In this document: piece after piece, positions 9,293 to 62,608 of the stretch
Numbering within the stretch: position 1 is the stretch's first letter
Layout: each line of letters begins with the position of its first letter
Origin: Gallionellaceae bacterium
Lineage (GTDB): Bacteria > Pseudomonadota > Gammaproteobacteria > Burkholderiales > Gallionellaceae
Length of the DNA: 64,000 bases
NCBI GenBank assembly: GCA_043755195.1
Contig: JAYUTK010000001.1
Location: forward strand, 2,875-66,874
Reading direction: 5' to 3'
Made by a program: the position numbers and the translations under genes
The notes under the pieces: model-generated
What the model was told of the DNA's origin: nothing
Databases searched by the model: none
The model's input: the letters and a program-made list of their open reading frames with translations, nothing else

Positions 9293-9392
9293 GGGCGTAG
9301 CCACTCTACGTTGACAATTAGACCCAATTACGTCATTCCTGCGAAGGTGGGAATGAGGTAATTCTGCCTAATGGAAAATTAGGGTTCAACCT

Positions 9393-31377: not shown

Positions 31378-32439
31378 TCATCCTCCAACTGGAAGGTACA
31401 TTGTTATCTGCACAGGCTCTTTCCCGTAATGGAGAGCTACTTTTGATCTAAGCTCGTTAATTGTGTGGCAATCTTTCGCCATACCAACAATCTCAAAGCA
31501 TCTTGAAACCAACTGACGCGCACCGTAGTTCTCCGTAAGCTGACTATGCCAGCGTACCCCTGCCGGTGGCTTGTTATCCTTTAGGTAAATTGCGACATCA
31601 GGGTCAAGAGTTTCATAAATCAATTCAATAACCAGCTTTCCCCACCATTTTGGCCTGCTATGCAAAGACCCTTTCCATCCGGTAAGCCTGCCGAACTCTT
31701 CCCACAATTCATCTGGAAATGTTTTTTCCCATGCTCGAAGCTCGTCAGCTATAAAAGCCTTCAATTTAATTTGCAATGCATCACCCTCGCGCACAAATTG
31801 ATAACCAGTGGCCTCATCAATAAGAGCGATTAATCCAATTTTAGCGCATGAAGATAGAAGAATAGCGCAAGACATTGCATTCTCCTTTTGCCGCTCTGTC
31901 TTGAGCGCATCTGACGTAAAGGCCGCCACATACCCCTGACAAACTTCAAGGAATATTTCAGCCGTCAACCCACTACCTTTGAATTGTGTGCCCGGAATAG
32001 AAAAAGACAGAATTTCCCCCAGCACTTTTTCCTTGTTAATAAACAGCTTAAGCGCTTCTACACCTATGTAATCCCCCAGGTTCCCAGAATCAACTTTTGC
32101 TATTGCCTGAACTGCTGATCTCATGCTTATTACCCGTTCACCGGTATTAAGAACATAGCAATCAACCGATGCGCCACCGAGTTGCAATTCTCCTTTGTGC
32201 TTCGCAAAAGTTTCTACTGATTCCGCAGGAATTAGTACTATTTTATTTGACGGCGGCATAAAGTCATGCGGGGATAAATCAATTCCACGTTCCGAGGCTA
32301 ATTCGAGCAATTGCTTGTGCCATTTTTGCGGGATATTTCCTTTCTTAACCCAATACGCAATAGTGCTTTGCCCTTTACTAATCAAAGCGGCAAGTTCAGT
32401 TTGATTGTTAAACTTGGAAATAATCTTTTTAACGTCCAT
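31378..32439 (-). CDS. P63C-domain protein with N-terminal Cro/CI-like HTH
   Basis: QTELAALISKGQSTIAYW HTH; GELQLGG..DCYVLNTGERVIS; ALIDEATGYQ, WEKTFPDE, WWGKL P63C-type motifs. Confidence 0.8.
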   Translation of the reverse strand: MDVKKIISKFNNQTELAALISKGQSTIAYWVKKGNIPQKWHKQLLELASERGIDLSPHDFMPPSNKIVLIPAESVETFAKHKGELQLGGASVDCYVLNTGERVISMRSAVQAIAKVDSGNLGDYIGVEALKLFINKEKVLGEILSFSIPGTQFKGSGLTAEIFLEVCQGYVAAFTSDALKTERQKENAMSCAILLSSCAKIGLIALIDEATGYQFVREGDALQIKLKAFIADELRAWEKTFPDELWEEFGRLTGWKGSLHSRPKWWGKLVIELIYETLDPDVAIYLKDNKPPAGVRWHSQLTENYGARQLVSRCFEIVGMAKDCHTINELRSKVALHYGKEPVQITMYLPVGG

Positions 32440-32552
32440 ACGATCACCTTTTGATAAATTGATAAAACAGATAGTAAACTATCAAAATAACTGTTGTCAA
32501 TATCAAATTTATCAGGCATAATTTCAACCTGAACGATGCTTAAGGGGTTGCC

Positions 32553-33434
32553 ATGAACGTCCTGCCAATTGAAAAACGCGCACAAATCATTAACCTGCTG
32601 GTTGAAGGCAACTCCATGCGCGCCACTTCCCGCCTTGCTGATTGCTCAATAAACACCGTTACCAAGCTGCTTATAGACGTTGGCATGGCCTGTAGCGAGT
32701 ATCAGGACAAGGCCATGCGCAACCTTACTTGCAAGCGCATCCAGTGCGATGAAATATGGGCATTCTGCTACTGCAAGGAAAAGAATGTTGCGCCTGAGCA
32801 TGAGGGGATACTTGGCTTTGGCGATGTTTGGACTTGGACTGCGATAGATGCCGATACCAAACTTGTTCCGTCTTTCATGGTGGGCAAGCGTGACGCAGAA
32901 TATGCGCAAGGCTTCATTGAGGATTTAGCCTCTCGCTTGGCTAATCGCGTCCAACTGACTACAGACGGCCACAAGGCATATTTGACAGCGGTAGAAGATG
33001 CTTTTGGGCGAGATATAGACTACTCCATGCTAGTGAAGCACTACGGCAATCCAGCGGGTGAAATGCAAGGCCAGAAGCGTTATAGCCCTTCCAGTTTTGT
33101 GAGCGCAGAAAAGCGTCATGTTGCTGGCAACCCAGATGTTAAGCACGTTTCCACCAGCTATGTAGAGCGCCAGAATTTAACCATGCGCATGTCCATGCGC
33201 CGCTTTACTCGCCTGACCAACGGCTTTAGCAAAAAGGTTGAAAACTTGGAACACATGGTCGCGCTGCACTTCATGCACTACAACTTTGTGCGCATCCATA
33301 AAACATTGCACACAACTCCCGCAATGGCGGCAGGGGTAAGTGATAAACTATGGAGCATTGCTGATATTGCAGCGCTTGTTCCTGAGCCTGTAGCCGCAAA
33401 GCGTGGCAGCTACAAAAATAAAAAATCAAACTAA
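32553..33434 (+). CDS. IS1-family DDE transposase (single ORF)
   Basis: HTH SMRATSRLADCSINTV; IQCDEIW, TTDGHKAY, VERQNLTMRMSMRRFTR. Confidence 0.93.
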   Translation: MNVLPIEKRAQIINLLVEGNSMRATSRLADCSINTVTKLLIDVGMACSEYQDKAMRNLTCKRIQCDEIWAFCYCKEKNVAPEHEGILGFGDVWTWTAIDADTKLVPSFMVGKRDAEYAQGFIEDLASRLANRVQLTTDGHKAYLTAVEDAFGRDIDYSMLVKHYGNPAGEMQGQKRYSPSSFVSAEKRHVAGNPDVKHVSTSYVERQNLTMRMSMRRFTRLTNGFSKKVENLEHMVALHFMHYNFVRIHKTLHTTPAMAAGVSDKLWSIADIAALVPEPVAAKRGSYKNKKSN

Positions 33435-33687
33435 GTGTGCTGACGCACAGAATCGTGGTAAATTTCCGTATAGCATCATTCACTACGCATTGCAATTTTT
33501 TAAATGCTAGCCATCTTGACTTGACCAACAATTAGCTCTACTCTGCGCGCGTTTATGTATTAACAGACATTTTGAATTAAAGTATCTGCGGATTATTCCG
33601 ATAACGATAGTAAGAACTTTGTGTGGTAGTGGCTGTCATATGTCTGTGCCGCTGATTTTGGTGGAAAAATAGTCCTTGGAGGGAGTT

Positions 33688-33726
33688 ATGTTTAATATCG
33701 CTAAAGAAGAAGGATGGGATGGTTGA
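33688..33726 (+). CDS. Putative 12-aa peptide MFNIAKEEGWDG
   Basis: Strong RBS ggagggag, ATG...TGA, ending 3 nt before the DUF4760 start. Confidence 0.4.
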   Translation: MFNIAKEEGWDG

Positions 33727-33729
33727 GTT

Positions 33730-34239
33730 ATGGATGCACAAGAGCCAGTAAAAATAATTCTCTGGTTCGGTGAGTCAATAGGCTTCTGGATACAAACAGG
33801 AGCCGTTTTTTTATCCGCTGTTGCAGCTATATTTGTTATTCATCATAACGGGGTGTTGGCTAGAAGAAGATCAACGATTGACCATATAATTCACCAAAAA
33901 AGCAATGAGGCCATACTTAATGCGATTCATATCGTGTATAGATTGCACGATGATAACGTGCAATTCAGCCAGTATTTGGATAAACAGGATTCTGATGAAT
34001 TCAAGGCGATATTAAAAGTATTAAATAATCATGAATTCATTGCAGTTGGTATTCGCCGCAAGGCATTTGAAGAGCGTATTTATAAGGAACTTCAGTACTC
34101 TAATTTTGTGAAAGTGTATAATTCTGCCGCTGGGATAATTGCCGAAATAAGAAAAAAACAAAATAGTCATACTTTATTCCAAGAATTTGAGTGGCTAATA
34201 AAAAGATGGGAAAAATGCCCACTCAAGAGACGCACATAA
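33730..34239 (+). CDS. DUF4760-like protein (IS passenger)
   Basis: N-terminal TM, RRSTID, VLNNHEFIAVGIRRKAFEE..YK, FQEFEWL. Confidence 0.75.
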   Translation: MDAQEPVKIILWFGESIGFWIQTGAVFLSAVAAIFVIHHNGVLARRRSTIDHIIHQKSNEAILNAIHIVYRLHDDNVQFSQYLDKQDSDEFKAILKVLNNHEFIAVGIRRKAFEERIYKELQYSNFVKVYNSAAGIIAEIRKKQNSHTLFQEFEWLIKRWEKCPLKRRT

Positions 34240-34252
34240 AATCTGAACATAT

Positions 34253-34277
34253 ATCCCGCTTCGGCGGGATTTTTTAT
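34253..34277 (+). terminator. Rho-independent terminator just inside the right TIR
   Basis: atcccgc-ttcg-gcgggat followed by a T-tract. Confidence 0.85.
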
Positions 34278-34318
34278 TTATATTTCAAACTGAGACACTA
34301 CCAAAACGCTCTATCGCG

Positions 34319-34346
34319 TTGACACGATGAGTCAAGTCCGTATAAT
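34319..34346 (+). promoter_or_regulatory. Sigma70 promoter of the tRNA operon
   Basis: TTGACA-N16-TATAAT followed by a GC-rich discriminator gcgcgcgtcc. Confidence 0.88.
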
Positions 34347-34369
34347 GCGCGCGTCCTTAAATGGGATGT

Positions 34370-34445
34370 GGGTCGTTAGCTCAGCCGGTAGAGCAGCGGA
34401 CTTTTAATCCGTTGGTCGCCAGTTCGAATCTGGCACGACCTACCA
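34370..34445 (+). tRNA. tRNA-Lys(TTT)
   Basis: 76 nt; acceptor GGGTCGT/ACGACCT, anticodon loop CTTTTAA, TTCGAAT, encoded CCA. Confidence 0.97.
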
Positions 34446-34488
34446 CAGCGTAAAAAGTTTTATCAGTCTGTTCTGCATCAGCATCATC

Positions 34489-34564
34489 GCCGCTTTAGCT
34501 CAGTTGGTAGAGCAACCGCCTTGTAAGCGGTAGGTCGTCAGTTCGAATCCGACAAGCGGCACCA
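34489..34564 (+). tRNA. tRNA-Thr(TGT)
   Basis: 76 nt; acceptor GCCGCTT/AAGCGGC, anticodon loop CTTGTAA, TTCGAAT, encoded CCA. Confidence 0.97.
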
Positions 34565-34570
34565 ATATAC

Positions 34571-34599
34571 AAAAGGCTTGCAGCGATGCAGGCCTTTTT
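34571..34599 (+). terminator. Terminator after the tRNA operon
   Basis: aaaaggcttgca-gcga-tgcaggcctttt. Confidence 0.8.
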
Positions 34600-34722
34600 C
34601 ACGTCTAGCAGATTCGTATCTGTATAGGCGCAGTTCAAATTTTGTCCGGTTTTGCGGTATCATTTCCCATCACCACCGATCTTAGCCTACAGTTTCCAAT
34701 TCCCGATCAAAGAGATATTTAC

Positions 34723-34774
34723 GTAGGGCGGGTCACATCCGCCAACGAACAACGGCGGGTGTGACCCGCCCTAC
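34723..34774. repeat. GTAG-type REP doublet
   Basis: gtagggcgggtcaca ... tgtgacccgccctac; half copy at about 44397-44415. Confidence 0.75.
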
Positions 34775-34792
34775 AAATTACTTTACCTTTGA

Positions 34793-34972
34793 ACCCAGAT
34801 TTTCCATTAGCATTCTACTGCGGACGCTCAATAGGCCGAATCTGCACGAAAAAAATCAAAAAATGTTCTGTCAACGTAGAATGACTACGCCCTCCGAACA
34901 TTTTTTGATTTTTTTCGCACATCTTCAACCTCTTGATCGCCCTCGCTACGAGTGCTAATGGAAAATCTGGGT
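34793..34972. mobile_element. 180-bp MITE with ACCCAGATTTTCCATTAGCA termini
   Basis: Perfect 20-bp TIRs; flanked on both sides by TGA (34790-34792, 34973-34975). Confidence 0.85.
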
Positions 34973-35101
34973 TGAAGTGGAAATAAAATGATTGGCAATA
35001 ACATCCACCTTCCCATAACAAATATGGGATTGCCCAACGTCGGGTTCTATATGCTTGCGCTCTATTTCGTGATGTTGATCCACCCTGATTAAGGAGGCTC
35101 T

Positions 35102-36187
35102 GTGAAACGACTCATACTGTGCTGTGACGGAACATGGAACAAGGCCGATCAAGAAGATAACGGCACCCCTTGCCCAACTAATGTCGTCAAGATCAGTTAC
35201 CAGATCGCCAAGCGCGACGGTGATATTCCGCAAATTATTTACTATGACCAAGGAGTGGGTAGCGGAAATGCTTTGGACCGACTGTCGGGCGGAGCATTCG
35301 GGCAGGGGTTGGAGGACAACATCCACGACGCTTATCGCTTCCTGATTGCGAACTACGAGTATGGCGACGAGTTGTATTTATTCGGCTTCAGCCGCGGCGC
35401 GTTCACTGCCCGCAGCATCGCGGGCATGATCCGAAAATGCGGTGTACTGAGGCGCGAATTCGTCAAGCATTATCGCGATGCAATTGCGCTGTACCGCTCG
35501 GAACACCACCCTGCCGACCCCGCCGCTATGAAATTCAGACAGGGTTATTCTGTTTGCAGAGGGGGCGACATCAAGATCAGATTCATCGGGGTTTGGGATA
35601 CAGTTGGCGCGCTCGGCATTCCACTACGCGGCCTGCGATGGCTTACGAGTGATCTGTACGAGTTTCACGACACCGAACTGAGCGGCGCAGTCGAGTATGC
35701 CTACCATGCTCTCGCCATTGATGAACGCCGTGCGCCGTTTGAACCGACGCTCTGGATGTACAAGCCCAAGCCCTGGCAAACAATCGAACAAAAGTGGTTC
35801 TGCGGTGTACATAGCGATGTTGGCGGCGGTTACCCCGAACACGGGCTGTCCGATATCACGCTCGAATGGATGATAGGCAGAGCGCAGGGTGCGGGGCTTA
35901 AATTCGATAGCGCAGCGATGCTTGCCCACGCACTTAAACCCGATCCGTGCGCCTTGTTACATAACTCAAAAACTGGCTTGTATCGGCTGACCACGGGTTC
36001 AGATCGCTCAATAGGCTGGAGCATCAACACCGCGAATGCGTCTGTCGAGGCCAAGTACCAGAACGACCCAACACAATCCCTGCATGACAGCGTACTGACC
36101 CGCTGGGACAACGACACCGCATACCGCCCACCTGCGCTTAGAGATTACTTCAAAAGAATCAGCGACCGCCGGGGTAATGGAAAGTAG
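35102..36187 (+). CDS. DUF2235 (Tle1-like alpha/beta-hydrolase) protein
   Basis: LILCCDGTWN, YYDQGVG, LFGFSRGAFTAR, IGVWDTVGALG, HALAIDERR, WFCGVHSDVGGG. Confidence 0.92.
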   Translation: MKRLILCCDGTWNKADQEDNGTPCPTNVVKISYQIAKRDGDIPQIIYYDQGVGSGNALDRLSGGAFGQGLEDNIHDAYRFLIANYEYGDELYLFGFSRGAFTARSIAGMIRKCGVLRREFVKHYRDAIALYRSEHHPADPAAMKFRQGYSVCRGGDIKIRFIGVWDTVGALGIPLRGLRWLTSDLYEFHDTELSGAVEYAYHALAIDERRAPFEPTLWMYKPKPWQTIEQKWFCGVHSDVGGGYPEHGLSDITLEWMIGRAQGAGLKFDSAAMLAHALKPDPCALLHNSKTGLYRLTTGSDRSIGWSINTANASVEAKYQNDPTQSLHDSVLTRWDNDTAYRPPALRDYFKRISDRRGNGK

Positions 36188-37227: not shown

Positions 37228-38373
37228 TTATTTCAGTCCTGAAGTGATCTTCCCAATAGCGCGCAAGTATCGCTCGATTACAATTTTTTCATCGAACTCG
37301 CGCTCCATTTTTTTTCGACCTGCAACTCCCATGCGCTCACGCTCGTCCGGGGTCATTGCGATGATGCACTCTAATTTTTCGGCCAAATCAACTGCATCGC
37401 GCACTCGGCACAACAAGCCATTCACCCCATCGTCCACCACATCACGGCATCCGACCACATCCGTTGTTACGATCGGCCTGCCCATAGCTGCCGCCTCTAA
37501 CAAAGAGCGCGGCACACCTTCGCGATAAGAAGGCAGCACCACGCAATCAGCGGCGGCTAGGTGCGGCTTAACATCAACTGCCACGCCAAGATATTCGACT
37601 ACGCCTTCCCTTACCCAATCGTCCATCTCTGTACTTGAAACTGCGGTCTGATTTTTCACATCCAAAAAACCCAGCAGTTGAAACTTTACCGTCGGATATT
37701 GACGTCGAATTATTCGTGCTGCCGCGACGTATTCCCCCACGCCCTTGTCCCACAACAAGCGCGCAACCAGCAAAAAACGAAATGGGTGACCTGGTAAAGG
37801 AGGTATCGGCACAACGCTAAAAATATTCAGATCAATGCCTGAACCCGGCAGACGGCTGATTTTGGCCGGGGAAACCAGGCCGCTTTCGACAAATAAGCGC
37901 ATATCCTCATTATTCTGAAAAAATACATGGCGCGAACGCGATAAAGCAGTCTTGTACAGCAGCCGCACCAATCGGGTAAGCCAGCTATCGCGTATAAATA
38001 CCGTCCCCAAGCCTGCGATATTATTTATCACTGGAATGCCCAACACATGGGCCGCCAAAGAACCATAAATATTAGGCTTGACGGTGTAGCCCAAAAACAC
38101 ATCGGGTTGCTCATGCTTCAGCAATTTCCAAAACCTAAAGAACAGCAACAAATCGCGTCCCGGATGCGTGCCCTGATTATCCATCGGCAGCGCAACAAAG
38201 CGGCAACCCAATGCAGCCAAGCGCGGGGCATATTCATCATTCGGCGCAAGAGCCACCACCTCATAACCTTGGGCAACCAAGGCGCGTATCAAACCCGCAC
38301 GAAAGTTGACCAGGTTCCAGGCTGTGTTGAGAGCGATCACCACCTTTAGTTTGCACAAAGGCGAGTTGTTCAT
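37228..38373 (-). CDS. GT4 glycosyltransferase (PglA/WbnH-like)
   Basis: NTAWNLVNFR, YTVKPNIYG, LPSYREGVPRSLLEAAAMG; ATG 38373 overlaps the asnB stop. Confidence 0.92.
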   Translation of the reverse strand: MNNSPLCKLKVVIALNTAWNLVNFRAGLIRALVAQGYEVVALAPNDEYAPRLAALGCRFVALPMDNQGTHPGRDLLLFFRFWKLLKHEQPDVFLGYTVKPNIYGSLAAHVLGIPVINNIAGLGTVFIRDSWLTRLVRLLYKTALSRSRHVFFQNNEDMRLFVESGLVSPAKISRLPGSGIDLNIFSVVPIPPLPGHPFRFLLVARLLWDKGVGEYVAAARIIRRQYPTVKFQLLGFLDVKNQTAVSSTEMDDWVREGVVEYLGVAVDVKPHLAAADCVVLPSYREGVPRSLLEAAAMGRPIVTTDVVGCRDVVDDGVNGLLCRVRDAVDLAEKLECIIAMTPDERERMGVAGRKKMEREFDEKIVIERYLRAIGKITSGLK

Positions 38374-40508
38374 TGCTTCTCCAACCATGCCTGAAACATC
38401 AACACATTCCACAGCTGTGCCATCCAATTGCGCTTGCCGCTTAGATGCTCAGCCCACAATTGCCGAATGGATGCCGGGTGAAAATATCCCTCGCGCTGCA
38501 AGCGCGCTTCGTCCAACAAGTCTTCCACCCAATCGCGCAATGGCCCGCGCAACCAATTGTCTAAAGGCACACCAAATCCCATCTTGGGGCGATCAATGAG
38601 TTCGCGCGGAACGTGGCGGTAAAGCACCTGGCGCAATGGCCACTTGGTTTGTCCATCGCGCAGTTTGTATTCCAGCGGCAAACTCCAGGCAAACTCGACA
38701 AGCCGGTGATCCAGAAACGGTACCCGGCTTTCAAGCGACACGCCCATCCCCGCACGATCCACCTTGACCAAAATGTCATCCGGCAAGTAGCTGATCGTAT
38801 CCAGTGCCATCATACGTTCCACATCGTTCAACCCTTCCAGCTCAGGTCGCGCTCCCATCAAGTGTGTCGGTGGTTCTTTACCGTTAATCACCCAGTCTGC
38901 CGGATTACGAAGATGCGAAACGATACCCAGGTAAAGATCATCCACTGTGCGACTTGCCAGCACCCCTGCCCCCTTGTGCAATTTATCTCCCAACGGAGAA
39001 TAGCGTGCCGCACCGGGGATGAAACGTGCCAAATCATCCCACTTTTCCGGTGCTATCGAGGTAATACCCTTCGCCATCAACGCAAGCAATGGAGCAGGCA
39101 CGAGCGCCAATTTTCGCCACAAATTTTCCGTAATCTGGTAGCGGTTATATCCGCAAAACAACTCATCCCCTGCATCACCCGACAGCGACACCGTCACATG
39201 CTGTTTAGCCAACTGGCTCACCAAAAAAGTGGGTATCTGCGATGAATCCGCAAACGGCTCGCAATACAAGCCGGGCAAACGCGGAATCACCTCCATCGCC
39301 TGCTGCGGTGACACATACAACTCGGTATGCTCCGTGCCCAAATGCCGTGCCACGGCCTTGGCGTAAACTGCCTCGTTGTAACCTGCTTCGTTGAAACCGA
39401 TGGTGAATGTTTTAACCGGACGTGAAGACTGCGCCTGCATCAAAGCCACCACCGTGCTGGAATCAATACCCCCCGACAAAAATGCGCCCAACGGCACATC
39501 CGCCATCATCTGCTGCCGCACCGCGTCCTTGGCCAAGGTTTCCAGCGCGTCCACCGCTTCATCAGCCGTGCCTGCAAATGGCTTAGTCACACCAGCGCGC
39601 GCCACCTCAACCGAATCCCAATATTTCCGAATCCTGGGCTCAGGCTGTTCCAATGAAACAGACAACAAACACCCCGGCTCCAGCTTGGCGATGCCTTGAT
39701 AAATGGAATATGGTGCGGGAATATAGTTATGACGCAATAGCAAGCAAAGTGCGCCACGGTCTATGTCTGCCGCAAAAGCAGGATGCGCCTTGAGCGCCTT
39801 AAGCTCCGAGCCAAACAAAAACACTCGCTCGTTACCCTCACCCTGCCAGCCGTAATACAGCGGCTTTTCGCCCATCCGGTCGCGCGCCAAAGTCAGCGTT
39901 TGCGTTTCACGATCCCACAAGGCAATCGCAAACATACCGATTGATTTCTTGATCGTGGCCTCCACCCCCCAAGCCTCAATCCCTGCCAGCAAAGTCTCAG
40001 TGTCCGAATGCCCGCGCCACCGAATTGCTCCCTCTCCCACCGGGGGAGGGCTGGGGAGGGGGAGATCCTCCTCCACCCCCTTTGAAAAATGGGGGCTAGG
40101 GCAATGCTGTTCACTTAACCGTTCGTGGTGAGCTTGTCGAACCACTAGCTTCGCAAGCTGGAGCCCTTCGACAAGCTCAGGGCGAACGGAAATTTGCCTA
40201 AGTGAACAGCATTGGGGGCTGGGGGGGATTTGCTCCAACTCCCCCCGCAACTCCAAATGGTTATAAATCTCCCCATTGAACGCAATCACAAACCGCCCAC
40301 TCGCTGACACCATCGGCTGATGACCCGCCGGGGACAAATCCACAATCGCCAAGCGCCGATGCCCAAGCCCAACACGCTGCTCAGCGTCGCACCAAACCCC
40401 GCCATCATCCGGCCCGCGATGAATGAGCGTATCCGCCATGCGCCGCAGCAGGACATCGTTCCCATTCTCACGAGCTAACCCACCCAAAAATCCGACCAAG
40501 CCACACAT
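38370..40508 (-). CDS. asnB: Asparagine-synthase-like glutamine amidotransferase of polysaccharide clusters, with an extra loop of about 60 aa
   Basis: MCGLVG, HRGPD, HRRLAIVDLS, NGEIYNH, SDTE, RDRMGEKPLYY, LSGGIDSS, LSGDAGDELF, KVDRAGM. Confidence 0.93.
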   Translation of the reverse strand: MCGLVGFLGGLARENGNDVLLRRMADTLIHRGPDDGGVWCDAEQRVGLGHRRLAIVDLSPAGHQPMVSASGRFVIAFNGEIYNHLELRGELEQIPPSPQCCSLRQISVRPELVEGLQLAKLVVRQAHHERLSEQHCPSPHFSKGVEEDLPLPSPPPVGEGAIRWRGHSDTETLLAGIEAWGVEATIKKSIGMFAIALWDRETQTLTLARDRMGEKPLYYGWQGEGNERVFLFGSELKALKAHPAFAADIDRGALCLLLRHNYIPAPYSIYQGIAKLEPGCLLSVSLEQPEPRIRKYWDSVEVARAGVTKPFAGTADEAVDALETLAKDAVRQQMMADVPLGAFLSGGIDSSTVVALMQAQSSRPVKTFTIGFNEAGYNEAVYAKAVARHLGTEHTELYVSPQQAMEVIPRLPGLYCEPFADSSQIPTFLVSQLAKQHVTVSLSGDAGDELFCGYNRYQITENLWRKLALVPAPLLALMAKGITSIAPEKWDDLARFIPGAARYSPLGDKLHKGAGVLASRTVDDLYLGIVSHLRNPADWVINGKEPPTHLMGARPELEGLNDVERMMALDTISYLPDDILVKVDRAGMGVSLESRVPFLDHRLVEFAWSLPLEYKLRDGQTKWPLRQVLYRHVPRELIDRPKMGFGVPLDNWLRGPLRDWVEDLLDEARLQREGYFHPASIRQLWAEHLSGKRNWMAQLWNVLMFQAWLEKQ
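40102..40214. mobile_element. 113-bp MITE inserted in frame in the asnB-like gene
   Basis: TIR caatgctgttcactta / taagtgaacagcattg; 10-bp flanks ggggctaggg and ggggctgggg; 113+10=123 nt. Confidence 0.9.
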
Positions 40509-41845
40509 CAGAGATCGCTCCTGCCGGCGTTGAGTCGGCCCACCTGCGCCATCAGACCGTCAAATATCCGCCCGGATACTGCGGTCGGGAACTCCGCCGG
40601 GAGTTCTGCCGCCACTGATTCGATCACTGCGGGTGTCATGGCGGCAATTCGCTGGATGACTGCTTCGAAATCGGATCCCAAGGCATTGGCCTTGGCCACT
40701 GCGTTCCAATGTCGGCGTTGAATCCCGGCGATCCGGTAGTGGGCATTCTTCGCGTGCAGCGCCATAGCCAGCTTCACTTTCTGCCACTGAAACTCGCGAG
40801 CACCCTTTCCAATTACCGGCCAAGCCGACATCACATCGTAGAGCGGCGTGAGCCAAAAGCGACCCTGTGATCCGATAAAAACACTGAAATTTTTGGCGTG
40901 CCCATCGGGAGCAGCGAGCATCCAAAATACAAGCTGAGCCGTCATAAAATTCGTGCGGTCAGATTCGGCATTGTCGCTGCCACGCAATGTGTTAAGGATG
41001 GCCGCGATACCGGGCCCACCCTGCTCTTCATACTTACGTTCCGGCGGCAATCCTGACACCTGGCAAAAATCTTCCTGCGGCAAACGAGCCCACCAGCCGT
41101 TGATGAGGCGGCGGTCAAACCGCGTGACCGCCAACACCTTGTGCCGGCCAAACATCCCATAAGAACAATCCGCGACCGGAAGACCATAAGCACGTACTAA
41201 CTTAGCGCAAAGCCATTCATTCTCGACCGAGGTAGAAAAATCGGCGCGCATTCCACCCACCTCGCCCAACGGCAGCTTCAGAATATGCGTAGTGGGTGTT
41301 GTCCCGCGCGGCCGGCACCATTGATCGTTGTGCCAGAGCAGCGCGGTCTTTTCCTGCGCCCCGGCAATGGAAATTCGCAGCTCATCTTCTTCAGGCACAC
41401 CGATGTTCCGATTGCTTACTGTGTCATCGAGAATTCTTTCGACATCAGATTCGGAGAGTGGCTCGGCATCAATTCGTCGAACATCAGGAGCCGGGCTACC
41501 ACTGGGCAGAAGTTGCAGAGCGCCAACACAATCACGACCAATTTTTTCGAGCAGTTGAAATGCCTGGGTAGAGTCGGTGCCGAATTTGGATGCCAAGCGC
41601 TTGCGGATGCCCTGGCTGTCGGGAAGTAAGTTATCGAAGTAGGACTCGACGATACTCCCTGAAAACGGAGCTGTCCCTTGGGAGAGCGGCAGCGAAAGGG
41701 ATAGTGGCCGCCCCTGCGGATTGTCAAGCCAAGATGAATCGTAGGAAAAGGAATGGCCGCCTGCCGAGGTAAACGTCCAATGGCCGACGAACTCGCCGTT
41801 CATCCAAATATCCAGCACCTTTCTGGATGACGGACGCCCAGCCAT
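40508..41845 (-). CDS. hipA: HipA-family kinase toxin (with N-terminal couple domain)
   Basis: SIAGAQEK, HILKLP, DGHAKNFS, LTPLYDV; start overlaps the hipB stop, stop overlaps the asnB start. Confidence 0.95.
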   Translation of the reverse strand: MAGRPSSRKVLDIWMNGEFVGHWTFTSAGGHSFSYDSSWLDNPQGRPLSLSLPLSQGTAPFSGSIVESYFDNLLPDSQGIRKRLASKFGTDSTQAFQLLEKIGRDCVGALQLLPSGSPAPDVRRIDAEPLSESDVERILDDTVSNRNIGVPEEDELRISIAGAQEKTALLWHNDQWCRPRGTTPTTHILKLPLGEVGGMRADFSTSVENEWLCAKLVRAYGLPVADCSYGMFGRHKVLAVTRFDRRLINGWWARLPQEDFCQVSGLPPERKYEEQGGPGIAAILNTLRGSDNAESDRTNFMTAQLVFWMLAAPDGHAKNFSVFIGSQGRFWLTPLYDVMSAWPVIGKGAREFQWQKVKLAMALHAKNAHYRIAGIQRRHWNAVAKANALGSDFEAVIQRIAAMTPAVIESVAAELPAEFPTAVSGRIFDGLMAQVGRLNAGRSDL

Positions 41846-42135
41846 TACCAAGGCTCCCGAGGTTTCATCTTTTGACTTCCTGAGGCAACCTTTTTTTCCG
41901 CTGCCTTCACCGCAAGGGAATTCCGTGGCTCAACCTGAAGTTCGGCATCCAGCGCCATCAGCACAGTAAGAAGTTGGTCTATGGACATCCTCTCAGGATG
42001 ATTTTCTATCACCGAGATACGCTCCTGGGACAAGCCTATCTTCTGGCCCAGATCAATTTGCGACCAACCCTTGGCCTTCCTTAATTGCTTAAGGATGGGG
42101 CCCAACTGGCCTGTGGTGCGAACATTGTTAGCCAT
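41845..42135 (-). CDS. hipB: HipB-like XRE-HTH antitoxin
   Basis: LKQLRKAKGWSQIDLGQKIGLSQERISVIE. Confidence 0.9.
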   Translation of the reverse strand: MANNVRTTGQLGPILKQLRKAKGWSQIDLGQKIGLSQERISVIENHPERMSIDQLLTVLMALDAELQVEPRNSLAVKAAEKKVASGSQKMKPREPW

Positions 42136-42166
42136 GGTGAATATTCCTTTTAACGAATACGCTAAC

Positions 42167-42215
42167 TATATTCGCTATTCGATATATTTTCAATATATTC
42201 TCTATTGGCTATATT
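42167..42215. promoter_or_regulatory. Duplicated operator-like motif upstream of hipB
   Basis: TATATT-N2-CTATT-N3-TATATT at 42167-42188 and 42194-42215 (27-bp period). Confidence 0.4.
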
Positions 42216-42267
42216 TAATTCCATTTCTTATTTATTCCAATTCCATTTTGAAATGCCAATAATCAAG

Positions 42268-42300
42268 TCCGTTCGTGGTGAGCCTGTCGAACCACAGTTA
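42268..42300. repeat. REP-like half element
   Basis: gtccgttcgtggtgagcctgtcgaaccacagttacc, shared with the copy at about 4333-4370. Confidence 0.7.
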
Positions 42301-42543
42301 CCTTGACACACAGTTATCTTGTAATTCCATTTCCAGTTAAATCCGGCGACAATTCCCTCCCCTTGAAGGGGAAGGTGTAGTGGCGTTAAATTCGCCAGAT
42401 TACAGTGCCAAATGCCGCGCAAATTAGTACCAAATGCGTCGCGGCGTTACAGGCGCGAGAAAAATTTTAGCGCGCCGCATATGTTTGATATGTAAGCGTT
42501 AAAATTTTTGGAACAACGCAGCATCGCGACGGAGTTTGGATTT

Positions 42544-42790
42544 TTAGAGGTGCCCTAATGCCGCAACAATTTGTTTCACTGCTGCCTCCGGCGAAAACAG
42601 CTTGGCCGACAAGGTACGGCAATGGGCGGACACATTTTTTCCAGAGCTAATCTCGTCTGCAAGTTCCCGCGCCAGACGCTGCAAGGTATCAACCGAGTGA
42701 TCCGTGCAGACTCGCCCAACACCTTCTGTTCGTATCAACGCTGCCAGATCATTGCTTGGATTAATGCTCCCCAGCACAGGCAAGCCGGCC
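42544..42790 (-). pseudogene. 3' remnant of a WbuB-like GT4 gene (copy B)
   Basis: YMQAGLPVLGSINPSNDLAALIRTEGVGRVCTDHSVDTLQRLA; closely matches about 44020-44260. Confidence 0.85.
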
Positions 42791-42839
42791 TGCATATATA
42801 AGCTTGCAATTACGGGAACAGGAATCCATAATTGCAAGC

Positions 42840-44018
42840 ATGATAAATCGCTTTCTTTACACCAAGCTATCAGACGCAATCTCACGATCGCCTGCGGTAG
42901 CTTTGATTGGCCCGCGGCAAGTCGGAAAAACCACGCTGGCGCTGGAAGTCGGCAAAAACCATAATGCGCTCTACCTCGATCTCGAATCCGAACAAGATCG
43001 CGCCAAGCTCGCCGAACCGGAGCTATATCTTGCTGACCACCAAGACAAACTGATCATCCTGGATGAAATTCACCGCGCGCCCAATCTCTTTCCGGTTTTG
43101 CGAGGCCTGATAGACCAAGGGCGACGTGCTGGCCGTAAAACCGGCCAATACCTGTTGCTCGGCTCTGCCTCCCTTGACCTGCTCAAGCAATCCGGCGAAA
43201 CATTGGCAGGGCGCATCGCCTACCTGGAACTCGCTCCGTTCAACCTATTGGAAACACAAGCACTACCATCGGATGACCTCTGGGTACGAGGTGGTTTTCC
43301 GGAAAGTCTGCTGGCCGCCAGTGCAACCTGGAGCCTGCGCTGGCGGCAGGATTTCATTCGCACCTATCTCGAACGCGACATCCCTCAGTTTGGACCGCGC
43401 ATAGCCGCCGAAACCCTGCGACGCTTCTGGGGTATGCTCGCCCACTATCAGGGCGGCCTGCTCAACACTGCCCAGTTTGCCCGCAATCTGGGTGTGGATG
43501 CCAAAACCGCTGCAAGTTATCTCGATTTACTCGTTGACCTGCTGCTGGTGCGGCGCCTGCCACCATGGCACGCCAATCTGGGCAAGCGGTTGGTCAAATC
43601 GCCCAAGGTGTATGTACGCGACAGCGGCTTGGTACATGCCCTGCTCAACATTCCCGACAAGGAAACCCTGCTTGCCCACCCAGTCGTGGGACAAAGCTGG
43701 GAATGCTTCATAATCGAAAACCTGATCACCTCCGCACCGGATGGTGTGCAAGCGTATTTCTATCGCAGCAACGGCGGCGCCGAGGTTGATCTGCTACTGG
43801 CTTGGCCAAGCGGAGAACTCTGGGCCATCGAAATCAAACGCAGCCTCACCCCCAAGCTGGAACGCGGCTTTCACGCTGCCTGCACCGACCTCAACCCAAC
43901 CCGCAAGTTTGTCGTTTATCCAGGCACGGAACGCTACCGCATCGCAGCAGACATCGAAGCGATTTCCCCGGCCTGCTTGGCCCTGGAATTAAATCCAGCT
44001 ATTAGGGTGCTGCAATAA
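42840..44018 (+). CDS. AAA_14/DUF4143 ATP-binding protein
   Basis: LIGPRQVGKTTL, ILDEIH, LLGSAS, RGGFPE, KRLVKSPKVYVRDSG, EVDLL...AIEIK. Confidence 0.92.
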   Translation: MINRFLYTKLSDAISRSPAVALIGPRQVGKTTLALEVGKNHNALYLDLESEQDRAKLAEPELYLADHQDKLIILDEIHRAPNLFPVLRGLIDQGRRAGRKTGQYLLLGSASLDLLKQSGETLAGRIAYLELAPFNLLETQALPSDDLWVRGGFPESLLAASATWSLRWRQDFIRTYLERDIPQFGPRIAAETLRRFWGMLAHYQGGLLNTAQFARNLGVDAKTAASYLDLLVDLLLVRRLPPWHANLGKRLVKSPKVYVRDSGLVHALLNIPDKETLLAHPVVGQSWECFIIENLITSAPDGVQAYFYRSNGGAEVDLLLAWPSGELWAIEIKRSLTPKLERGFHAACTDLNPTRKFVVYPGTERYRIAADIEAISPACLALELNPAIRVLQ

Positions 44019-44400
44019 GCCCGCTGCAATTTGTTTTACTGCCGCCGCTGGCGAAAACAGCTTTGCCGACAAGGCACGGCAACGGGCGGATACACTTTTT
44101 CCAGATCTAATCTCGTCTGCAAGTTCCACCACCAGACGCTGCAAGGTATCCACCGAGTGATCCGTGCAGACTCGCCCAACACCTTCTGTTCGTATCAACG
44201 CTGCCAGATCATTGCCCGGATTGATGCTCGCCAGCACGGGCAAGCCTGATTGCATATACGAAAGGAACTTGCCGGGTATGCTGTGGGTTTTGTGGCGCGG
44301 ATCGAGCGCAACAATGCCCACATGGCACTGGCACTGGGCATATAAACCGGGAATTTCCGCAGGATCGATCTCGTCATGGAATACCACGTTATCCAGCGGG
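43989..44400 (-). pseudogene. 3' remnant of a WbuB-like GT4 gene (copy A)
   Basis: HVGIVALDPRHKTHSIPGKFLSYMQSGLPVLASINPGND; 5' part missing, break at a REP half. Confidence 0.85.
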
Positions 44401-44470
44401 TATGACCCGCCCTACAGATTATTTCCTGTTTGCAGGGGAAATGGAATTAGCAAGAACCTGGGGAATCTAT

Positions 44471-44504
44471 TTGACCTTTAGTGGTAAAAGTAGTAAATTA
44501 CCAC
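44471..44504 (+). promoter_or_regulatory. Putative promoter/operator of the mazEF-like pair
   Basis: TTGACC-N17-TAAATT overlapped by the inverted repeat GTGGTAA-N10-TTACCAC. Confidence 0.5.
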
Positions 44505-44528
44505 TTGTAGTAATTGATGGAGTAAATC

Positions 44529-44756
44529 ATGGAATTTGCACGCGTTACGGCCAAAGGCCAGGCAACAATCCCCAAGCGCATCAGAGAAGCCGCCCATATT
44601 CGGGAGGGCGATATGCTGGCGTTTGATCTGGATAGCAACAACCGGATCACCATCAAGCGTATTGATCCGTCTGTTGACGTCGAGTTATCAGCGTTGCAAG
44701 AGACTCTATCTGAATGGAGCTCACCTCAGGACGAGGAGGCGTGGCGTGACCTTTAA
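44529..44756 (+). CDS. AbrB/MazE-family antitoxin
   Basis: ARVTAKGQATIPKRIREAAHIREGD; C-terminal LSEWSSPQDEEAWRDL. Confidence 0.9.
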   Translation: MEFARVTAKGQATIPKRIREAAHIREGDMLAFDLDSNNRITIKRIDPSVDVELSALQETLSEWSSPQDEEAWRDL

Positions 44757-45084
44757 ATCATTTGATGTGGTCGCTGTACCTTTTCCATTCACAGATCGTG
44801 ACGCAACAAAGCGCCGTCCGGCCTTGGTAATTTCCAATGAGAGCTTTAATCAGCAGCACAATCAAATTGTGTTGGCCATGATCACCACGACCACTGATAA
44901 CGTTTGGCTCAGTGATGTTTCATTAACAAATTGGCAAAAGGCCGGGCTAAAAGTCGCTTGCCAGCTTCGTTTGAAATTGTTCACGCTGGATCAAAGCCTA
45001 GTCTTGAAGACTATCGGACATTTATCATCCAAAGATGTTAAATCCGTACAAGCTGCTTTAACTGCGTTTATTGATGTTGGTTAG
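44746..45084 (+). CDS. PemK/MazF-family toxin
   Basis: GTG start overlapping the antitoxin; FDVVAVPFPFTD...KRRPALVIS...LAMITT. Confidence 0.9.
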   Translation: MTFKSFDVVAVPFPFTDRDATKRRPALVISNESFNQQHNQIVLAMITTTTDNVWLSDVSLTNWQKAGLKVACQLRLKLFTLDQSLVLKTIGHLSSKDVKSVQAALTAFIDVG

Positions 45085-45108
45085 CTCTGGACACTCAGTC
45101 CCCAGCAC

Positions 45109-45540
45109 TCAGTCCCCAGTCCATGGATCAAGCAAGACCAGCTCACTTATTTTGCGAAAATCTTTCGTGTTCCGGGTCGCCAAGGCCAAGCCATGACGGA
45201 GTGCAATGGCAGCTATCTGTGCATCCTCAGTAGAAATCGGCATACCAACCTTATTACGGGTGGCAACCAACGCAGCATACCCATGAGCCGCCAACTCATC
45301 GAACGGCAAGCAACGCCCGACAAAATCCTGATCGAACATCTGCTCCACCGCACCGGCAATTGCATCCCTGCGCTTGCCGCCCGGCAACAAAGCCACACCC
45401 AACAACAATTCGGCTTGAGTAATTGCACTGGTATAAAACTCAGTGTCCATTTGTTGCGCAAACCAGGCAAGCACCATCGAAGAAGGCTGGGGGCGCATCA
45501 ACTCAGACAGCACATTAGTATCCAGCAGCACGCCCTGCAT
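45109..45540 (-). CDS. vapC: VapC (PIN) toxin, FitB-like
   Basis: LLDTNVLSE, ITQAE, DAQIAAIA, LATRNTKDF. Confidence 0.95.
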   Translation of the reverse strand: MQGVLLDTNVLSELMRPQPSSMVLAWFAQQMDTEFYTSAITQAELLLGVALLPGGKRRDAIAGAVEQMFDQDFVGRCLPFDELAAHGYAALVATRNKVGMPISTEDAQIAAIALRHGLALATRNTKDFRKISELVLLDPWTGD

Positions 45541-45542
45541 GA

Positions 45543-45788
45543 TCAGCTTTCCATCTTGGGCGGGGTTCTCACTTTTAGCCGCTTGGGAATAGGCAAAGCA
45601 TCCAACTCAAGTGCGGCAAAATGCTTTTGAATACGCTGCGCAAAAGCCGGCTGGTTCCGCTTCGGCAAAACCGCACGCAACAGAATCTCGCGCACCTCCT
45701 GCTCCATAGAGCAACCGTGCTGCGCTGCCTGTAACCGCAAACGGTTTTTGACCTCATCATCAATATTTCTAATCGTAAGTGCCGCCAT
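45543..45788 (-). CDS. FitA-like ribbon-helix-helix antitoxin
   Basis: MAALTIRNIDDEVKNRLRLQAAQHGCSMEQEVREIL; ATG 45788. Confidence 0.9.
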   Translation of the reverse strand: MAALTIRNIDDEVKNRLRLQAAQHGCSMEQEVREILLRAVLPKRNQPAFAQRIQKHFAALELDALPIPKRLKVRTPPKMES

Positions 45789-45855
45789 GTCAGCCCCCGA
45801 AGTGATTGCAATGCCATCATTGTAATCACTTGTCGGCGGTACAGCAATACGTAGT

Positions 45856-45975
45856 TCAGTCCCAACCGGTTGTGGGCATATGCGGCACTGGTGGCATGAG
45901 CGCCAAAACCAGCACAACCAATGAAACGGAGCCAAAGGCTCATCTCCATAGAACAGTCCGATTGCCCTGTTTCAC
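45856..45975 (-). pseudogene. VanZ-family N-terminal remnant
   Basis: VKQGNRTVLWR*AFGSVSLVVLVLALMPPVPHMPTTGWD* with in-frame stops. Confidence 0.6.
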
Positions 45976-51129: not shown

Positions 51130-51392
51130 TGTTCAATCCTTTACCAGTGGATTTAACACAGAACTGACGCACCAGCATGGGCACAATCTTGTATATAAAC
51201 ACCAAAAAAATCAGCATCTTGATATGCCGTTCAATCCCAAAAAAAAGTGTTCCCCATGGAAGCTAAATACTAGGGCAACACACATATTCGCGTAGAAAAC
51301 AACCCCAATCACCCCACCCCTCATCGCCTTTCTGTTGAGCACGGTTAAAATCACGCCAAGTCCAAACATGATAATCATTGTTCCAATCCATC
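51130..51392 (-). pseudogene. C-terminal remnant of a Wzy-like polymerase
   Basis: GWIGTMIIMFGLGVILTVLNRKAMRGGVIGVVFYANMCVALVFSFHGEHFFLGLN in a frame not shown in the ORF track. Confidence 0.55.
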
Positions 51393-51691
51393 CGAGCGGC
51401 CAAGCCTCCCAGCAAATCGGCGTGGTACAACCAACTCTGCACGATGTCGGGCTTAACCCTGCGAATCAATAAAACCAACTGGAAAAAATGCGCAATTGGT
51501 GAGTGTTTAAAGTCAAAGACAATTAACTCAACGCCTGCTTCTTCAAAACGATTTCGCATATCTCCCACAGGATCTAGCGAAACACCAAGATGCTCATATT
51601 GACTACTGCGCGCGCTGATGATGAGGCGATGTAACATCATTTCGGCCCTACCAACTTTTAGCCCGCTGATAACGTGCAATACTTTTGGCAT
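51393..51691 (-). pseudogene. N-terminal remnant of a GT4 paralogous to 48966-50096
   Basis: KVLHVISGLKVGRAEMML...QSWLYHADLLGGLAAR, then homology stops. Confidence 0.85.
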
Positions 51692-52222
51692 CAGCGAACA
51701 CCATGCCGAAACGCGCCCACAGATATTGCCACAACGTCGGATGATGCCAGATTTCCGAGGGCAGATCGTCTCTTCGAAGAGTCCGTAAGTTCCCAGAAAT
51801 TACGTCTGCAATTGCGCGCCGCATGAGTTGCCGCAAATAATGAGTGATGCGGAGCGCGCAATGCGGTCTGCACTAGCCCCCCGAGGGCCAAAGAAAATAG
51901 CGTCATCCACATCAAAAACAAAAGGCTTTCGCAACAACGGTTCCCATGTACAAAGAGTCGCCGTCAGATTCCGTTGAAGGAAGCGCAGGTCGTATCGATT
52001 TGCGCGCAGAGTGCGCACAAGGTTTTCAGCCACGGTCATCGCCAGCCATGCCGGTCGACGAATGTGCGCAGCAGGAGCATAGGCACCTAAAGAGCTGCGC
52101 AATTCTGATACTTCGAATCCGTACTTCCTTAAGTCTTCAACGAACTGAGACCATCGAAATCTTGCGCTTGGAACTCTCTCACCTTGTGTTATTCCAATTA
52201 ACTTTGGTGCGTCTATTTTCAT
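51691..52222 (-). pseudogene. Internally deleted GT4 paralogous to 50107-51129
   Basis: VPSARFRWSQF...FDVDDAIF...ICGNS followed by a C-terminal remnant LTDSSKRRSALGNLA in another frame. Confidence 0.8.
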
Positions 52223-58913: not shown

Positions 58914-59393
58914 TCAAGCCCAGCCCCGCCTCTCGATTTCGGCAATCATTTTGCTGGCTGTTGCGATGAGTGCAGGCACAAAATAATGGCCGCTTTGCAG
59001 GGCATTGCTCAGTATGACTGGGTCTTCAACGTATTCATGGATCATTTGGTTTCTAAGATTGCGCATGGTCATCCATTCATCAGCAGACTTGAGCAGCCCC
59101 AAGCGTTCGGCTCGGTCAAGATTATCAATGGCGGCAGAAGACTTTTCACCCAAGGCGGCGATAAGTAGTGGCAATAATTTGTCGCCCACTGTGTCTTGCA
59201 GGCGGCCAAATCTGCCTACAAAGGCTTCCACTCGTTCTGCCAGGTCTGGGTCTTCTTCGAGCCGGGTTGCTTGCTCCAGGGTAAACAAGCCTTCAAATAG
59301 TCGCTGATCTGTGGTGGTGAGGTGCTGGCATTCTTTGCGCACGACTCTTACCAAAAATTGCAGGCGCAATAGGATTTTTGGCTCCACTGTCAT
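58914..59393 (-). CDS. HEPN RNase toxin (HepT-like)
   Basis: RFGRLQDTVG, RNQMIHEY (RX4HXY); 4-nt overlap with the MNT gene. Confidence 0.85.
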   Translation of the reverse strand: MTVEPKILLRLQFLVRVVRKECQHLTTTDQRLFEGLFTLEQATRLEEDPDLAERVEAFVGRFGRLQDTVGDKLLPLLIAALGEKSSAAIDNLDRAERLGLLKSADEWMTMRNLRNQMIHEYVEDPVILSNALQSGHYFVPALIATASKMIAEIERRGWA

Positions 59394-62564: not shown

Positions 62565-62608
62565 TTTTTATCTTTCCAAGCTTCTATTATTAAACTCACG
62601 TCATGCCC

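Follow-up and report, generated by a model that had tools for sequence, protein, structure and literature searches.

In a 64,000-nt stretch of a Gallionellaceae genome (contig JAYUTK010000001.1; this whole stretch is called the window below), a gene for an AAA_14/DUF4143 ATPase lies between two diverged copies of the 3' end of a glycosyltransferase gene in a surface-polysaccharide cluster. Here we document the anatomy of this arrangement, its recurrence in other genomes, the pattern of divergence between the copies and the lack of mobility genes among the scanned cargo open reading frames (ORFs). With moderate confidence, we read the truncated copies, or tails, as recombination scars: a new allele of the sugar gene and its adjoining cargo would have been imported through a homologous anchor, with the far end of the incoming DNA joined illegitimately within the resident gene. 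Collectively, the cases suggest that small selfish genes whose cargo encodes neither an integrase nor a transposase may reach surface-sugar clusters through ordinary recombination. The features at the centre of the analysis are as follows.

Tail A: 42547–42798, minus strand; 3' remnant of a putative WcaI/WbuB-like glycosyltransferase of family GT4, residues ~302–382.
Tail B: 44011–44397, minus strand; 3' remnant of the same GT4 gene, residues ~258–383.
Cargo 1: 42840–44018, plus strand; AAA_14/DUF4143 ATPase gene, a single gene of the PADLOC candidate defence family PDC-S01.
Leader of cargo 1: 42799–42839, plus strand; compact leader/promoter, the same in four independent contexts.
84-bp tract in tail A: 42672–42755, minus strand; identical to 44132–44215 at 83 of 84 positions.
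84-bp tract partner in tail B: 44132–44215, minus strand.

A repeat search identified 42551–42798 and 44011–44258 as the sole long direct repeat in the window (248 nt, 89–90% identity, copies 1,460 bp apart), and in the alignment of tail A with tail B the similarity stops sharply at either side. The initial annotation had described the ATPase gene as lying between two similar but diverged 3' ends of a glycosyltransferase that is no longer intact in the window, and both points hold. Measured against a full-length 383-aa GT4 homologue in locus L003, tail A covers residues 302–382 and tail B residues 258–383 (79% and 84% identity, respectively, by tblastn); nothing else in the 64 kb reaches ≥45% identity to that protein, so an intact copy of the gene is absent from the window. 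The WbuB-like assignment is putative; the full-length homologue matches the WcaI family below that family's cutoff, and tail B matches Pfam Glyco_trans_1_4 weakly (E = 0.0027). The last three codons and stop of tail A (GHL-stop) come from an adjoining element resembling a miniature inverted-repeat transposable element (MITE), and the 5' truncation of tail B adjoins the promoter region of a mazE gene. Tail B also has an in-frame 6-bp tandem duplication at ~44296–44307 (YAQCQCHVG, compared with YAQCHVG in all relatives). A 32-nt inverted repeat (42322 and 44418) that encloses the whole block was discarded, being 72% complementary, which we estimate to be chance level.

The layout is unlikely to be an assembly artefact, as the order B–cargo–A is the same in several separate assembly records of this organism and a 1,456-nt Logan contig crosses both junctions with zero mismatches, at a depth equal to that of the flanks. 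Look-ups of the exact AAA_14 protein and of protein P0001 returned only this same layout among contigs encoding identical proteins.

The 1.2-kb insert contains one AAA_14/DUF4143 ORF alone (Pfam E = 1.9 × 10−26 for AAA_14 and 1.4 × 10−48 for DUF4143). Translation probably begins with the ATG at 42840, and the stop is at 44018; the gene is convergent with tail B and overlaps the end of that tail by ~8 nt. The protein matches the PADLOC profile hidden Markov model PDC-S01 (E = 3.3 × 10−91), which makes it a candidate for a role in defence. The leader has a −35 element (TTGCAA, 42804–42809), a 17-nt spacer and a −10 element (CATAAT, 42827–42832), and it contains a 10-bp inverted repeat (CTTGCAATTA/TAATTGCAAG). 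With the ATG only 7 nt past the −10 element, the mRNA is probably leaderless; the transcript would move with the gene and is possibly self-regulated. PDC-S01-type genes in the window and in loci L172, L175 and L177 have a conserved 38-nt palindromic promoter upstream. At the junction of tail A with the leader, the sequence reads GCATATA/TAAG/CTTGCAAT, in which an ATATA overlap with the leader of the other contexts is possible.

A search with the AAA_14 protein gave at least 8,000 matches at E < 1 × 10−30. The best 120 of these are at least 81% identical and include Burkholderiales metagenome-assembled genomes (MAGs) and, at 83%, a Chloroflexi-labelled MAG, a distribution that indicates frequent horizontal transfer of the gene. 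Homologues at 87–91% identity lie beside rmlA/rmlC together with two more paralogues (L172) or within an MSHA-type pilus operon (L175 and L177), and no transferase tail or flanking duplication accompanies any of these three. Across contexts, the similarity sets in 38–44 nt ahead of the ATG and tails off a few codons short of the stop. Because the homologues sit in unrelated contexts without a tail and the limits of similarity hug the gene, cargo 1 is a tight, self-sufficient unit of ~1.2 kb, of which a tail is generally no part. The earlier proposal that cargo enters attached to the tail of a sugar gene thus stands in part: the layout recurs, but the homologues at 87–91% carry no tail. A literature search on DUF4143 and AAA_14 returned nothing relevant.

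Two side observations concern these homologues. In L172 (2060–7170), the three AAA_14/DUF4143 paralogues stand in a row adjoining rmlA/rmlC, with a 51-nt hairpin-containing repeat (98% identical) ahead of two of them. In L177, a repeat of ~130–160 nt (68–90% identical) occurs at 2362–2518, after a PaaA2/ParE pair, and at 5725–5854, after a 1,025-aa DUF6701 gene and directly before the AAA_14 homologue of the pilus operon.

A second gene in the window has a comparable setting, as the initial annotation had noted, although the evidence there is weaker.

Cargo 2: 59963–61000, minus strand; DUF1016/YhcG PD-(D/E)XK nuclease gene, PADLOC PDC-S02.
Epimerase tail 1: 61000–61188, minus strand; last 63 residues of a WbpP/TviC-like UDP-GlcNAc 4-epimerase, upstream of the DUF1016 gene.
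Epimerase tail 2: 59857–59934, minus strand; 26-residue remnant (LADISKAVTLCGYQLPYCIGKGLKIA), ~29 nt past the DUF1016 stop.

The DUF1016 gene is the lone cargo gene between these tails, and its protein matches the PADLOC profile PDC-S02 (E = 6.2 × 10−145), again as a candidate for a defence role. Epimerase tail 1 matches residues 303–350, the last 48, of WbpP (PDB 1sb8; E = 7.6 × 10−12), its stop overlaps the DUF1016 start codon (ATGA), and it follows an intact TviB-like gene (61284–62564), the place where such an epimerase is expected. Epimerase tail 2 shares 16 of its 26 residues with tail 1 (62%; E = 5 × 10−10), and the nucleotide repeat spans 42 nt at 76% identity, with a strict local alignment score of 38 compared with a maximum of 28 among 300 shuffles. 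A PDB search with the 26-residue peptide, which is too short for this purpose, gave no match.

We scanned one genome per species and metagenome contigs for relatives of the transferase, collecting loci through tail motifs. A protein search with tail B had returned short proteins only (99–223 aa), as though tail B were a free-standing mini-gene or mobile tail; this impression was a selection artefact, as the genome and metagenome scans show most relatives to be full length (~400 aa). Most related genomes have a single full-length copy, in many of them with a WecA-like gene 0.4–1.5 kb downstream, and in several the gap between the two genes holds toxin–antitoxin (TA) pairs or other insertions, such as Phd–PIN (L008) and a HigBA-like pair (L002). 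In ~17 loci, 3'-end fragments of the transferase with varied 5' break points occur that are not due to contig ends. That fragments are always 3' ends is not a valid generalization: because tail motifs were what led to the loci, little can be read into the absence of 5'-only fragments, and a head duplication exists in L011. Two metagenome proteins, P0034 and P0111, are chimeric ORFs in which the transferase tail is fused to the N terminus of a FitA-like antitoxin in one and to part of a WecA-like protein in the other; they are probably additional instances, from other organisms, of illegitimate joining at this gene.

The layout itself recurs beyond the window, so that its absence from other strains, which the initial annotation had said would refute its idea, is not borne out; it occurs both in these loci and among the further cases yielded by a self-comparison of 132 loci (1.78 Mb).

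L001 (Gallionella MAG): GT378, tail, ParD/ParE, tail, WecA; 374 nt, 84%.
L007 (Desulfocapsa-labelled MAG), start: Bac_transf gene, Phd/PIN, partial copy (residues 84–246 and 326–454); 88–95%.
L007, remainder: Fic, Fic, RelE, tail (339–454), HigB/HTH, tail (279–454); 88–95%.
L034 (Chlorobiaceae MAG), first pair: capF-like gene, radical-SAM gene, capF tail; 404 nt, 92%.
L034 (Chlorobiaceae MAG), second pair: gmd, HicAB and HTH, gmd tail; 374 nt, 93%.
L011: capF head, ImmA/IrrE-like gene plus DUF4411, full capF; 379 nt, 94%.
L075 (Limnohabitans sp. WS1, a cultured isolate): asnB, cargo, copy of 228 nt of the asnB tail with ~190 nt of downstream flank; 94% (blastn).

Counted by insertions, this gives two in the window, one in L001, three in L007, two in L034, one in L011 (with a head) and one in L075; the four-copy array of L007 is the clearest case. 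The cargo in the cases examined is always a small selfish or defence-type module; in L001 it was identified only through precomputed gene-call annotations, and in L075 it consists of an ImmA/IrrE-like gene and a second ORF without a Pfam match. Target genes vary (GT4, Bac_transf, capF-like, gmd, asnB and epimerase). The tails also begin at different positions, namely residues 258 and 302 for the window, ~250 and 210 for L001, and 84, 279 and 339 for L007. Such variable 5' ends suggest illegitimate joining and speak against a fixed recombination site. A 5' boundary that seemed to be shared by tail B and tail 1 of L001 differs by ~20 nt in the alignment and was dropped, as was L046, where an fcl head follows an AAA-ATPase_like/PDDEXK_9 gene, an ambiguous case whose second copy lies at the contig end.

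Pfam scans of the cargo ORFs of the window, L007, L034, L011 and L075 gave no match to an integrase or transposase, and those of the cargo and neighbouring ORFs at 31–64 kb of the window gave none beyond an IS1-type transposase (32553–33434) 10 kb off. The integrase-free route proposed at the outset is consistent with these scans. It is not wholly new, as the comparison with restriction–modification (RM) systems below makes clear (PMC2853133).

A more mundane origin for the tails would be that complete glycosyltransferase genes were duplicated in tandem and then lost their 5' parts in two independent deletions, or that the metagenome assembly is chimeric. Tandem paralogues of other genes do exist in some loci (L028, L030 and L052), and the data come mostly from metagenome assemblies. 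However, none of ~170 loci holds two full transferase copies within 8–10 kb, which leaves whole-gene duplication, the outcome that the initial annotation had named as fatal to its idea, unsupported. The agreement of separate assembly records and the even depth of the contig over both junctions likewise weigh against such origins, as do the same layout around asnB in an isolate genome (L075) and a divergence pattern indicative of different alleles. We regard this explanation as highly improbable.

That divergence pattern was examined over 243 aligned nt of tails A and B. Identity is 35/43 (81%) in the 5' flank, 83/84 (99%) in the central tract and 99/116 (85%) in the 3' flank. The central tract shows no special conservation in other pairs (75–92%) and bears states unique to A and B (LIRTEG, compared with LIQREG elsewhere); at most 1 of the 26 mismatches falls inside it (hypergeometric P ≈ 1 × 10−4, for a block picked after viewing the data). 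From this pattern, we take it to be a gene-conversion or crossover tract. Overall, the A–B nucleotide identity is the highest seen, and outside the tract it is no higher (81–85%) than with tails of the other genomes compared. At the protein level, tail B shares 72–73 of 81 residues with three metagenome tails and 69 of 81 with tail A.

We also estimated the ratio of nonsynonymous to synonymous divergence (dN/dS). Tails A and B differ by 13 synonymous and 13 nonsynonymous changes (dN/dS 0.31, dS 0.24), a nonsynonymous share under the neutral expectation (P = 0.007), and without the 84-bp tract the values are 0.36 and 0.37. Full-length orthologues give dN/dS of 0.07–0.25. Against other genomes, tail A gives 0.14–0.30 and tail B 0.07–0.25; with the higher ratio, tail A looks like the older remnant. 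Values for the other pairs were as follows.

L007 copies, including remnant versus remnant: dN/dS 0.05–0.16, dS 0.18–0.39.
L034 capF pair: dN/dS 0.23, dS 0.23.
L034 gmd pair: dN/dS 0.23, dS 0.18.
L011 pair: dN/dS 0.18, dS 0.17.
L001 pair: dN/dS 0.21, dS 0.46.

Across all pairs, dS is 0.17–0.46 and dN/dS 0.05–0.36, well below 1. Since divergence in place would push dN/dS towards 1, the copies look like remnants of different, once-working alleles rather than duplicates that decayed where they stand. A comparison of the two tails had been suggested as a check for different donors, and both the ratios and the flank identities of 81–85% speak for separate sources.

The closest known class is the insertion with long target duplication described for RM gene complexes (Nobusato 2000; Furuta, Abe and Kobayashi 2010; PMC2853133), the form of which the present cases share. 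In that class, direct repeats of 46–423 bp flank the system, without other mobility genes; the repeats match a single-copy host sequence, often over the 3' end of a host gene, with left–right identities of 93–99%, and most cases are in naturally competent species, the mechanism being unknown (PMC2853133). Judged as in Furuta 2010, the flanking repeats exceed 30 bp here (248 nt at 89–90%, and 42 nt at 76% for DUF1016), and the insert is below 20 kb without other mobility genes (1.2 kb with a single ORF; DUF1016 alone). As to a single-copy target, most related species have one full copy; a near strain without the insert was not found, look-ups of the exact protein returning only the same layout. 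Our cases differ in their cargo, which is a TA pair or a single-gene defence candidate (PDC-S01, PDC-S02 or ImmA/IrrE with DUF4411), in their more diverged copies (81–96%, dN/dS well below 1), which look like different alleles, in their setting in polysaccharide loci and in their stacking to arrays of up to four copies.

The same process could in principle account for the present cases: cargo would have entered a resident gene, ~250 bp of target would have been duplicated by staggered breaks or by template switching during repair, and the copies would have diverged later, partly as the functional copy was replaced by other alleles. The class structure fits, with direct repeats of >30 bp around a small selfish module without mobility genes (PMC2853133); A and B have derived states in the 84-bp tract that occur in these two alone, each gives its lowest dS against the other, and a left–right identity of ~93% occurs in the published set, for example 384/412 in Burkholderia (PMC2853133). 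The low dN/dS, which extends to the tail-versus-tail comparison in L007, is not what in-place remnants should show, however, and the A and B flanks resemble tails of the other genomes compared at least as closely as they resemble each other. In addition, every layer of an array would need an insertion and a separate allele replacement, and dS of 0.2–0.46 would imply a very long survival of non-functional direct repeats. On balance, we consider a long target duplication unlikely.

The import of alleles with their cargo, which we favour, draws on homology-facilitated illegitimate recombination. In the account of that process given in PMC6382021, one homologous anchor integrates adjacent foreign DNA, the other end being joined at 3–10 bp of microhomology (de Vries and Wackernagel 2002; Meier and Wackernagel 2003, in PMC6382021), and the reaction is described there as RecA dependent, with no need for an element-encoded recombinase (PMC6382021). 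That is a laboratory phenomenon followed with markers, whereas here we see a natural genomic signature only, for which the anchor, the microhomology (possibly ATATA) and competence are presumed. In the window, the incoming DNA would have been a diverged allele (now tail B) with the PDC-S01 candidate gene abutting its 3' end, and it would have aligned with the resident locus by way of homologous sequence, either inside the transferase gene or upstream of it. Its far end, just beyond the 38-nt cargo promoter, would have joined illegitimately within the resident gene at about codon 302, stranding the resident 3' end as tail A without any recombinase of its own. The 84-bp tract may have been homogenised later between the direct repeats, and a separate event at the MazEF side may have removed the 5' part of the imported allele, truncating tail B. 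Repeated imports would build gene–cargo–tail–cargo–tail arrays. The succession of events, the identity of the resident tail and the route of recombination are inferred.

Repeated imports best explain the variable boundaries, the differing targets, the lack of a recombinase in the scanned cargo ORFs and the allele-level divergence with low dN/dS. They would also account for the 146 nt of downstream flank that copies c2 and c4 of L007 have in common, as expected if each imported allele carried its own downstream DNA. In the window, tail B abuts the cargo and reads as a diverged allele of the resident gene, presumably the donor copy, and the junction of tail A with the leader permits an ATATA microhomology.

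Several observations weigh against such imports. We found neither an isogenic empty site, the contigs that encode the identical protein all showing the same layout, nor a donor arrangement in which an intact transferase is convergent with this AAA_14 gene. In 3/3 closely examined cases, the upstream copy is itself 5' truncated, so that extra events are required, and several cargo-side joints lie 0–30 nt from the cargo ORF, tighter than random illegitimate joints suggest. Synonymous sites place A and B nearest to each other even outside the 84-bp tract (dS 0.37, compared with ≥0.39), which leaves room for an old in-place duplication or a donor of the same genus. Finally, the counts are small, and the window pair does not permit rejection of a model in which one branch is neutral and the other constrained.

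The geometry of the locus, exactly one unit plus one extra tail, is also what would result if a small circle of cargo and tail (1,460 bp here) integrated by a single RecA crossover in a resident tail (Campbell type), or if gene–cargo–tail spread as a self-flanked cassette. The 84-bp near-identical tract within repeats of 81–85% identity is the expected site of crossover with heteroduplex repair, direct repeats can excise such circles and L007-type arrays would follow from repeated integration. Against this, neither a circle nor an excised form is present among the assembled Logan contigs, and the unit has an even depth throughout; a single joint from 42556 to 44481 in these contigs, considered as the deleted or circular form, has only 20 nt at its sides and is not credible. 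No other genome was found to hold this cargo with this boundary, close AAA_14 homologues lack a tail, and in L001 the downstream copy reaches further 5' than the upstream copy, unlike the product of a single Campbell event. Flank affinities to third genomes failed as a test of Campbell integration versus one-ended import, as the reference genomes are too distant. This alternative seems to us less likely again than a long target duplication.

Phage 21 and e14 integrate at icd, and genomic islands at tRNA genes, bringing a substitute gene end; such integration uses an integrase and a fixed core site. As in that type of accretion, the present cases have a displaced 3' end beyond the insert, and repeated rounds give gene–island–tail–island–tail arrays; unlike it, they show no integrase match in the scanned ORFs, variable boundaries and many target genes. 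Site-specific integration at the 3' end of a gene, by a recombinase acting in trans on an element that carries a substitute tail, would leave a displaced tail, the element and a substitute tail as its classical outcome. Both copies have the identical 8-bp sequence TATATGCA at their 5' edge, and the serial arrays resemble tandem islands at tRNA genes. With 5' boundaries and target genes that differ case by case, there is no common core site, and neither an integrase among the scanned cargo and neighbouring ORFs at 31–64 kb nor a repeat common to the cassettes that separates them was seen. We judge this route most improbable.

The arrays are also reminiscent of integrons, in that small modules, many of them TA pairs, accumulate serially at one locus. 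They differ from integrons in having no attC-like site or repeat family common to the modules, mixed orientations and no IntI seen, and their separators are fragments of a neighbouring housekeeping sugar gene. Capture of the integron type fails as an explanation given the lack of attC-like sites. A palindromic element of 106 bp next to tail A was considered as an attC site and rejected, as its ends are without RYYYAAC/GTTRRRY on inspection of the sequence.

A broader possibility, which we advance tentatively and hold to be doubtful, is that partial copies of sugar genes serve as portable homology arms. A gene–cargo–tail unit, with both flanks matching the target, would enter by a RecA double crossover or as an excised circle, and repeats of this would build integron-like arrays. 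If true, portable arms would be a general integrase-free route of spread for single-gene candidates such as PDC-S01 and PDC-S02; recombinase-free, integron-like arrays of TA and defence genes would form at the ends of polysaccharide loci, and any genome with the target gene would be open to entry.

Many defence and TA genes are plainly mobile yet without a recombinase. Tail scars with low dN/dS would be a signature of how they move that is readable from sequence alone. Every import would leave its mark, along with its place in the succession and the allele then resident, and strain comparison and transformation could therefore be used to test the question. They would also show that polysaccharide loci, themselves under phage pressure, gather defence-type genes, and would extend the long-target-duplication class past RM systems.

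The surroundings of both cargo genes form a minus-strand polysaccharide (O-antigen or exopolysaccharide) cluster that runs from 63696 to 36190. It begins with Wzz, a TviB-like dehydrogenase, FdtA, a GNAT acetyltransferase, DegT, a flippase and several GT4 genes, and continues with EpsG, a methyltransferase, a deacetylase, AsnB, another GT4 and a WecA-like initiating transferase. Selfish modules are scattered through it (DUF1016, MNT/HepT-like, FitA-like/VapC, MazEF, AAA_14 and HipBA), the following among them, listed with the MITE-like element.

MNT/HepT-like pair: ~58914–59650; selfish module within the cluster.
FitA-like/VapC PIN: 45109–45935, minus strand; near tail B, on its upstream side.
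MazE/MazF: 44529–45084, plus strand; adjoins tail B on its upstream side.
MITE-like multicopy palindromic element: 42451–42559, minus strand; abuts the end of tail A, end motif TAGGGCAYCTCTAAAAATYCA.
HipB/HipA toxin–antitoxin: 40508–42135, minus strand; downstream of tail A.

The palindromic element, of ~106–140 bp, has a depth 100–150 times that of its flanks in four metagenomes, with both flanks variable, and on these two grounds it behaves like a MITE; we take it to resemble Correia elements. Copies of TAGGGCAYCTCTAAAAATYCA occur in the window at 3 (minus), 4538 (plus), 17053 (plus), 42540 (minus) and 61192 (minus), the last as a solo MITE-like end at the 5' edge of epimerase tail 1, and elsewhere at 7162 in L172, 15654 in L003 and 1767 in L134. 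An AAA_14 homologue in L172 likewise owes its final codons and stop to this element. An Rfam search of 41800–45200 gave no match, and the IS1-type transposase was rejected as a source of the end motif, which is absent around that gene.

Three further observations concern the neighbourhood. A 115-nt element resembling a repetitive extragenic palindrome (REP) or a MITE, at ~40019–40217, lies in frame inside the AsnB ORF (38370–40508); it is 98–100% complementary to 9390–9504 and related to 62606–62708, 4299–4371 and 42233–42305. Residues 99–163 of that ORF are missing from homologues, and in another sample of the same organism asnB was called as two ORFs of 120 and 591 aa. The region 31378–36187 is a possible integration hot spot, with a P63C/CI-like gene, the IS1-type transposase, DUF4760, tRNA-Lys and tRNA-Thr (34370–34564), nested inverted repeats (34789–34976, also complementary to 9052–9145) and a Tle1-like phospholipase gene (35102–36187) that borders the sugar locus at its WecA-like end. 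Finally, at 51263–52222, a 142-aa N-terminal GT4 fragment (51263–51691) is followed by a 140-aa ORF without an assigned family, which may be a further scar.

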